NCBI GenBank assembly: GCA_951406725.2
Contig: OX597833.1
Span: 63,922,001 to 63,986,000 of the forward strand
DNA: 64,000 nt
Source of the DNA: Octopus vulgaris
Lineage: Eukaryota
Direction: 5' to 3'
The notes under the pieces are model-generated. The model searched no databases. It was not told the origin of the DNA and saw only the letters and a program-made list of their open reading frames with translations. Position 1 is the first letter of the stretch, and each line of letters starts with the position of its first letter. This document shows, one piece after another, positions 2,765 to 2,959 of this stretch. The translations under genes were made by a program, and so were the position numbers.

Positions 2765-2769
<5 letters not shown>

Positions 2770-2959
2770 TTATAGAAGGAGCTTCTACAGGACTAGAACT
2801 GTTTCATTCAAATGAAATCATCATGAAGCTTCCTGATGATTTCATTTGAATGAAACAGTTCTAGTCCTGTAGAAGCTCCTTCTATAAAATAAATTAATTT
2901 ACTCTGCTATGTATTGAGTACCTTATTTACTGTGGTTAACCCCGACTCAACCCGGGACC
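2765..2959 (+). mobile_element. Short HHR-bearing, PLE-like non-autonomous element in (TA)n, with a 128-bp terminal palindrome
   Basis: Near-perfect palindrome 2765-2892 centred on GAAGCTTC (2825-2832). AATAAA at 2888-2893, then a ~65-nt unique tail. (TA)n on both sides. Confidence 0.7.
2827..2877 (+). ncRNA. Type I hammerhead ribozyme
   Basis: AGCTTC-CTGATGA-T TTCA tt TGAA T-GAA-ACAG ttctagtc CTGT-A-GAAGCT. Stem I is 6 bp, stem III 4 bp, with a GUA cleavage triplet (predicted cut after 2871). Stem II is weak. Confidence 0.75.

Follow-up and report, generated by a model that had tools for sequence, protein, structure and literature searches.

A promoter-less head-to-head stub of a Penelope-like element in Octopus vulgaris, probably formed by two cDNAs on one capped sense RNA

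Inverted, 5'-truncated pLTRs with a tail have been described for Penelope-like retroelements (PLEs) that carry an endonuclease (EN+; PMC8557442, PMC3846280). In the accessible portion of the latter study the junction palindromes are ascribed to self-priming on an antisense template, with a sense template left open (PMC3846280). For the PLE PAc, the available sections of an in vitro study report that reverse transcription starts at two points, one at each boundary of the tail, that both DNA strands are extended and that uncleaved RNA is used (PMC11167929). The hammerhead motifs of metazoan PLEs cleave poorly alone, and lone as well as opposite-strand paired hammerheads far outnumber full elements, according to the accessible text of PMC4209133. 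Outside the PLEs, an extra G marks capped full-length L1 insertions, as stated in the available part of PMC11702581.

The locus described here lies in a 64,000-nucleotide window of Octopus vulgaris (the whole stretch of DNA that was analysed). It resembles the inverted pLTRs as presented in the accessible parts of both sources (PMC8557442, PMC3846280) in its head-to-head arms, one-sided tail, microsatellite target and junction palindrome, and differs in tail length, with 67 nt here versus the 30-40 given in those parts. Element positions are numbered with C2833 as position 0. The features are, in window coordinates:

2734..2764, no strand: left flank of the (TA)n target; sister copies lie likewise in (TA)n
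2765..2828, minus strand: inverted tail-less arm, from element position about +59 back to the junction, with the core ATGATGA
2824..2833, no strand: junction, in which G2825 is non-native
2827, plus strand: modal 5' end of copies (-6), the putative transcription start of the source element
2827..2877, plus strand: type I hammerhead motif of the Hydra-PLE style, with a predicted cut after A2871
2868..2886, plus strand: predicted competing hairpin that takes in the cut site as well as the 3' strand of stem I
2893..2959, plus strand: one-sided 67-nt tail, which is 5' UTR in the full-length copy L153, before the ATG at +177
2960..2979, no strand: right flank of the (TA)n target, as read from the sequence

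The initial annotation had described a 128-bp palindrome around a complete hammerhead, and this description holds. The palindrome spans 2765-2892 and consists of two 64-bp arms with no spacer and a single mismatch (T2824/C2833); its fold is predicted at -97.8 kcal/mol (z -24.6). The hammerhead core (CTGATGA 2833-2839, GAA(A) 2852-2855) lies where it had been placed, and so do the 6-bp stem I (2827-2832/2872-2877), the 4-bp stem III (2855-2858/2867-2870), the GUA site at 2869-2871 and the AATAAA at 2888-2893, while the core of the inverted left arm indeed reads ATGATGA. The symmetry axis, between 2828 and 2829, falls in the 5' strand of stem I as proposed, but the 8-nt self-complementarity attributed to that strand (GAAGCTTC) arose from the junction; at this site the intact element has AGCT or AAGCTT only. 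The AATAAA is not an RNA end, as the element runs on via the tail into the ORF. The exact junction of the locus occurs three times in the genome (G000); in it, T2824 represents a rare scar or, alternatively, a substitution that the common perfect junction acquired later. In sister copies, the arms that lack a tail stop at roughly +56 to +62.

A type I hammerhead descriptor gave a single match in the 64 kb window, namely the motif of this locus, which has the CUGANGA + GAAA core, a UH cleavage triplet and three stems. Its stem II comprises 3 bp with a U.U closure, the canonical G10.1-C11.1 pair being absent; the same closure is found in many Hydra-clade motifs of the accessible part of File S2 of PMC8557442. 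Rfam gave no hammerhead match for the locus, either at gathering score or at E<=10, and the Rfam E-value matches located there were rejected as hairpin look-alikes, with the hammerhead not among them. Across the hammerheads of the family the common variants affect N7, loop II and loop III and spare the stems. The RNA 2820-2895, which had been suggested earlier for a cleavage test, is predicted to fold into the competing hairpin (z -0.63), and an RNA beginning at 2827 is predicted to fold as the hammerhead. The idea that the full hairpin would sequester the ribozyme agrees with the fold prediction, in which the ribozyme would be hidden; nothing points to selection for such a function in a stub without promoter. 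The stub has neither a TATA box nor an ORF and is a dead end.

Elsewhere in the window, positions 5191-5220 (minus strand) carry a motif like the stem I and core of the family within a short hairpin, with GAAA absent at hammerhead distance; this is perhaps an old related pLTR. A 580-bp head-to-head palindrome of a SINE-like repeat with a 6-nt spacer is located at 35930-36509, and the same repeat is also present at about 3230-3400.

Genome matches in G000 were found by exact patterns: 905 for a 25-nt core motif and 2081 for a 26-nt tail motif, with 0 for the controls of either. Family copies are inserted in (TA)n and have the 67-nt tail on a single arm. L153 was reached via an endonuclease fragment near long copies, and shows the hammerhead unit on both sides of a 713-aa open frame with its ATG at +177. 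As read from the translation, this frame comprises an RT and, C-terminally, a GIY-YIG EN with YRDD and YIG motifs; it has no significant Pfam match of its own and 1117 homologues at E<=1e-20. Compared with the published marks of the Hydra clade, it contains DKT, the CxCx5C linker and CxxC/CxH around the E and N of the EN, and its N-terminal motif is RWR where the Hydra-clade form is RWK. The (TA)n target and the hammerhead in the pLTR are further marks of this clade found in the family. The unit of L153 measures 4.8 kb from hammerhead to hammerhead, against generally <3 kb in the Hydra clade, a typical but not a strict value. Its 3' region (L153:4420-6640), about 2.2 kb of microsatellite-like sequence, is copied as part of the element, which is unusual for a <3-kb clade.

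The PLE origin put forward in the initial annotation is thus borne out by the RT/GIY-YIG frame of the family, flanked by the same unit in L153, and the inverted-pLTR layout is seen both at the locus and, as an inverted arm, in 70 of 100 sampled copies. Judged by eye against the published alignment, the locus is a stub of a PLE with Hydra-clade features. We rejected a non-LTR retrozyme, for which the accessible text of 10.64898/2026.07.22.740005 describes tandem repeats with a hammerhead in each, as the locus is a single head-to-head unit and not a series of tandem hammerhead repeats. A MITE was rejected as well, the asymmetric ends and variable junctions standing against the symmetric terminal inverted repeats and fixed interior of such elements. 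A metagenome scan yielded no related locus. Open frames of two other PLE families lie beside this family at L040:4419-1774 (-) and L039:5760-4660 (-), and in L179 and L196 the hammerhead unit is present as a tandem duplicate, with the join at the point where the 3' strand and the 5' strand of stem I come together.

The end points of copies were taken from the first 100 of the 2081 tail matches, all on contig C1, with none dropped. Nearly half of the tail arms (46/100) end at -11..+3, and 34/100 at -7..-4; the other ends are 10 past -145, 11 at -144..-12, 13 at +4..+22, 8 at +23..+59 and 12 at +60 or later. Among the same copies, 47 of the 70 detected inverted arms end at -11..+3. The mode of this 15-nt window is the first base of stem I, and end values of -11 represent palindrome overshoot. 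The earlier prediction that inversion points cluster at stem I, and are not random, is supported by these 47/70 arms. Relative to a uniform model the clustering has p < 1e-30, which is overstated if some copies share descent, since some identical junctions could be copies of copies and the binomial p values overstate their independence. No hot spot on this scale is seen at the other self-complementary words (-8, +28, +41 and +50), and AGCT by itself is therefore not enough to account for the clustering.

A search for the head-to-head pattern near stem I returned 2570 rows; the first 100 rows correspond to 68 places, 20 of them perfect, and extrapolation suggests roughly 1,700 loci. Ends joined directly to (TA)n account for 202 rows at stem I versus 22 at +26, 3 at -40 and 40 at the cleavage site. 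Since single-arm stubs joined to (TA)n stop at the same base, with or without the tail, the clustering of ends needs no fold-back. The pattern is known here from one family: the motif of Hydra-1_Obim, taken as a second family, gave no head-to-head match in G000, and the fetched loci contain no other hammerhead families.

For the junctions, a hand count was made on the first 100 of the 202 (TA)n-joined rows, equal to 72 places. The most common junction is (TA)nT-G-AGCTTCC (21/72). A G is present at -7 in 26 of the 45 ends reaching -6, whereas the native base at this position is T, A or C in intact copies; the single G there among 50 segments belongs to a junction copy (L045). Altogether, a non-native G precedes the end at 34/72 places at stem I versus 1/17 at a control site (Fisher p 0.002). 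Six of the 72 (TA)n-joined ends, e.g. L205-L207, read G-T-GCTTCC, with T replacing the native A at -6. The G is found on both arms at 92 loci, and among the first 50 of these the second G is possibly templated in 26 and the junction has a 1-nt spacer in 9.

Upstream, TATAAA or CATAAA starts at -35 in 40/50 segments, 29 nt before -6. We infer that transcription starts at -6, which would make the first base of the RNA also the first base of stem I, and that the extra G was copied from the cap. In mouse, the optimum TATA-start spacing is 30-31 and spacings closer than -29 are rare, as given in the available part of PMC1779604; at 29 nt, the family lies at the short end of what is known, which counts against a capped start. 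In L188 a G-started arm reads on into the ORF, and the RNA with the -6 end is therefore likely the mRNA. L188 (reverse strand, about 630-1420) combines three capped-looking pieces in one insertion: a tail arm, an arm that enters an ORF with an internal deletion, and a tandem stub lacking the tail. This arrangement suggests template jumps.

On the directly observed family, layout, 5' end clustering, extra G and TATAAA 29 nt upstream we base our main reading, to which we assign a probability of about 0.72: the locus is a promoter-less head-to-head PLE stub derived from two cDNAs on a capped sense RNA. The (TA)n target would have offered both of its cut ends as cDNA primers on the 5' leader of the sense mRNA, and reverse transcription would have begun once at each boundary of the tail (about +60 and +127). 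Each cDNA would have run off the RNA at its predicted capped start, which is the first base of stem I, and short complementarity such as the self-complementary AGCT would have served to join the 3' ends of the two. Both would stem from one source element, probably from one RNA, and the template would be uncleaved. On either strand the antisense DNA continues straight from the target's 3' end, beginning at about +60 on one side and at +127 on the other, and the 14 fetched single-arm stubs with the G comprise 6 with tail, 7 without tail and 1 complex case. An origin of the arms from two different source elements is not supported, the arms being concordant at diagnostic sites; L189 and L190 show either a difference at N7 alone or disruption. 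Cleaved RNA was rejected as the main template, with 26 places at the cut site versus about 145 (extrapolated) at -5. Most of the (TA)n junctions at the cut site share TA with the flank, and copies with the whole hammerhead motif must have been made from uncut RNA.

The initial annotation had favoured a fold-back; in this model a single cDNA that has arrived at the same RNA end would fold onto itself and thereby prime the mirror arm. The arms agree at subfamily-diagnostic sites (47/47 at +11, 43/43 at +4) and pass -12 together (7/9 vs 1/61, hand count); fold-back predicts both observations just as well as double priming on one RNA, and they count against our reading. In line with a fold-back, the inverted arms of long ORF-bearing copies pass -6 in 9/9 cases, arm ends are <=3 nt apart in 28/70 pairs, the junction class CAGGAAGCTCCTG fits a hairpin with a 3-nt loop at 16/68 places (first 100 of 2570 rows), and for several of the frequent junction classes a snap-back hairpin with a loop of 3-4 nt can be drawn. 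At 13/70 loci, however, the tail-less arm extends >=10 nt further 5' than the tail arm, so that neither arm contains the other, and such non-nested arms are therefore not obtainable from one folded-back cDNA without later deletion. The longer arm is tail-less in L060, L066, L070, L103, L131 and L171 and cannot template a tail, tail-less single-arm stubs show that +60 is an independent start, and the 1-nt spacer in 9/50 double-G junctions (first 50 of 92) also speaks against a snap-back. Weakened by the non-nested loci and by single-arm stubs with the same end, fold-back may account for part of the copies, and we consider it unlikely as the origin of the pattern.

A still less probable explanation is that a polymerase stop, an RNA cut or a splice boundary, located at stem I, produces the end at -6 and that a terminal C is added whether or not a cap is present. 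A pyrimidine-rich stretch precedes the AG at -6/-5, much as in a 3' splice site, and in D. virilis Penelope, according to the accessible parts of two studies, the 5' end of helix I coincides with the end of the intron (PMC4209133) and the promoter is TATA-less and internal (PMC2377424). The splice boundary fits less well because the copy ends retain the AG and gain one constant base only, a constant upstream exon being absent. Moreover, few ends at the control site carry the extra G (1/17), the starts are on purines at -7, -6 and -5, and stem I would already be unwound on arrival of the enzyme.

Self-priming on an antisense transcript, the model proposed for head-to-head PLE palindromes in the available text of PMC3846280, would agree with the frequency of junction palindromes (20/68 perfect, first 100 of 2570 rows). 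It is contradicted by the extra G and the TATA box, both of which belong to the sense strand, by the arms, both antisense DNA continuing from the target's 3' end, and by single-arm stubs with the same end as paired arms, and seems very improbable for this family. That the palindrome spreads as a unit, a MITE-like or non-autonomous element whose shared axis is due to common descent, would give the recurrent perfect junction (20/68, first 100 of 2570 rows) but not dozens of junction types, four core/loop II variants with the perfect one, asymmetric palindrome ends and the same ends without a second arm, and we regard this as hardly credible and already largely excluded.

The cleavage site is no major end among the copies. 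Deletions of 1-2 nt just 3' of the predicted cut (+39..+42, window 2872-2875) are present in 15/173 arms, compared to 0/165, 0/166, 0/95 and 1/145 in neighbouring intervals, and never occur in both arms of one locus; they may be due to an enzyme crossing nicked RNA, to hairpin slippage or to assembly error. In the source mRNA the predicted cut after +38 would remove the cap. As a possible generalization, which we hold only tentatively, PLE mRNAs would have the first base of stem I as their exact start, the ribozyme would act as a self-decapping switch in the first 50 nt, and inverted pseudo-LTRs as well as the masses of lone and paired animal hammerheads would be strong-stop cDNAs that arise when two DNA ends prime on a single capped sense RNA. 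If this is true, the +39..+42 deletions would record an enzyme crossing cleaved RNA in vivo.

The shared end point and the extra G are the new part of the family data, and they bear on the template strand of PLEs, the origin of inverted pseudo-LTRs and the role of the hammerhead. With the fixed end lying 29 nt below a TATA box, the extra G would serve as a genomic read-out of the RNA start, and the two together point to a sense, capped and uncleaved template. A capped start would explain the excess of lone and opposite-strand paired hammerheads over full elements, predicts cap removal by cleavage and makes a long-open PLE mechanism directly testable.

Compared with described systems, the locus itself is ordinary and its layout already published, and the family is not among the printed families that could be matched. 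Three family motifs gave 0 matches in the available supplement text of PMC8557442, in which line breaks could hide one; Hydra-1_Obim, listed there, is a different family with another hammerhead. The accessible parts of PMC8557442 give for the Hydra clade the same DKT, CxCx5C, CxxC and CxH at the E and N of the EN, C-terminal GIY-YIG and (TA)n, and also the hammerhead form of the family (ctgatgat..tgaa acag..ctgt a); differences are the unit of about 4.8 kb, the microsatellite-rich 3' region and RWR for RWK. While the available text of PMC3846280 favours antisense self-priming, the junctions here concentrate at a single site and carry an extra G, which argues for a sense capped template. With Poseidon PAc of Anolis the family shares two RT starts bounding the tail, extension of two strands and uncleaved RNA, demonstrated in vitro for PAc and deduced for the family; the parts of the PAc study that were available treat neither the formation of inverted junctions nor the transcript start (PMC11167929). 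LINE-1 twin priming, as covered in the accessible portion of PMC11702581, is like our proposal in that both DNA ends prime on RNA and an extra G is found at the full-length 5' end. By title and start of abstract, in a search that covers the subscription literature thinly, we found no paper tying inverted junctions to a capped start. In LTR elements minus-strand strong-stop DNA is formed by run-off at the cap, as we propose here, whereas in the present family no strand transfer would rescue the short cDNA. Twin priming of L1 yields two cDNAs from different regions of the RNA; here both would copy the same leader, and therefore a palindrome would result.
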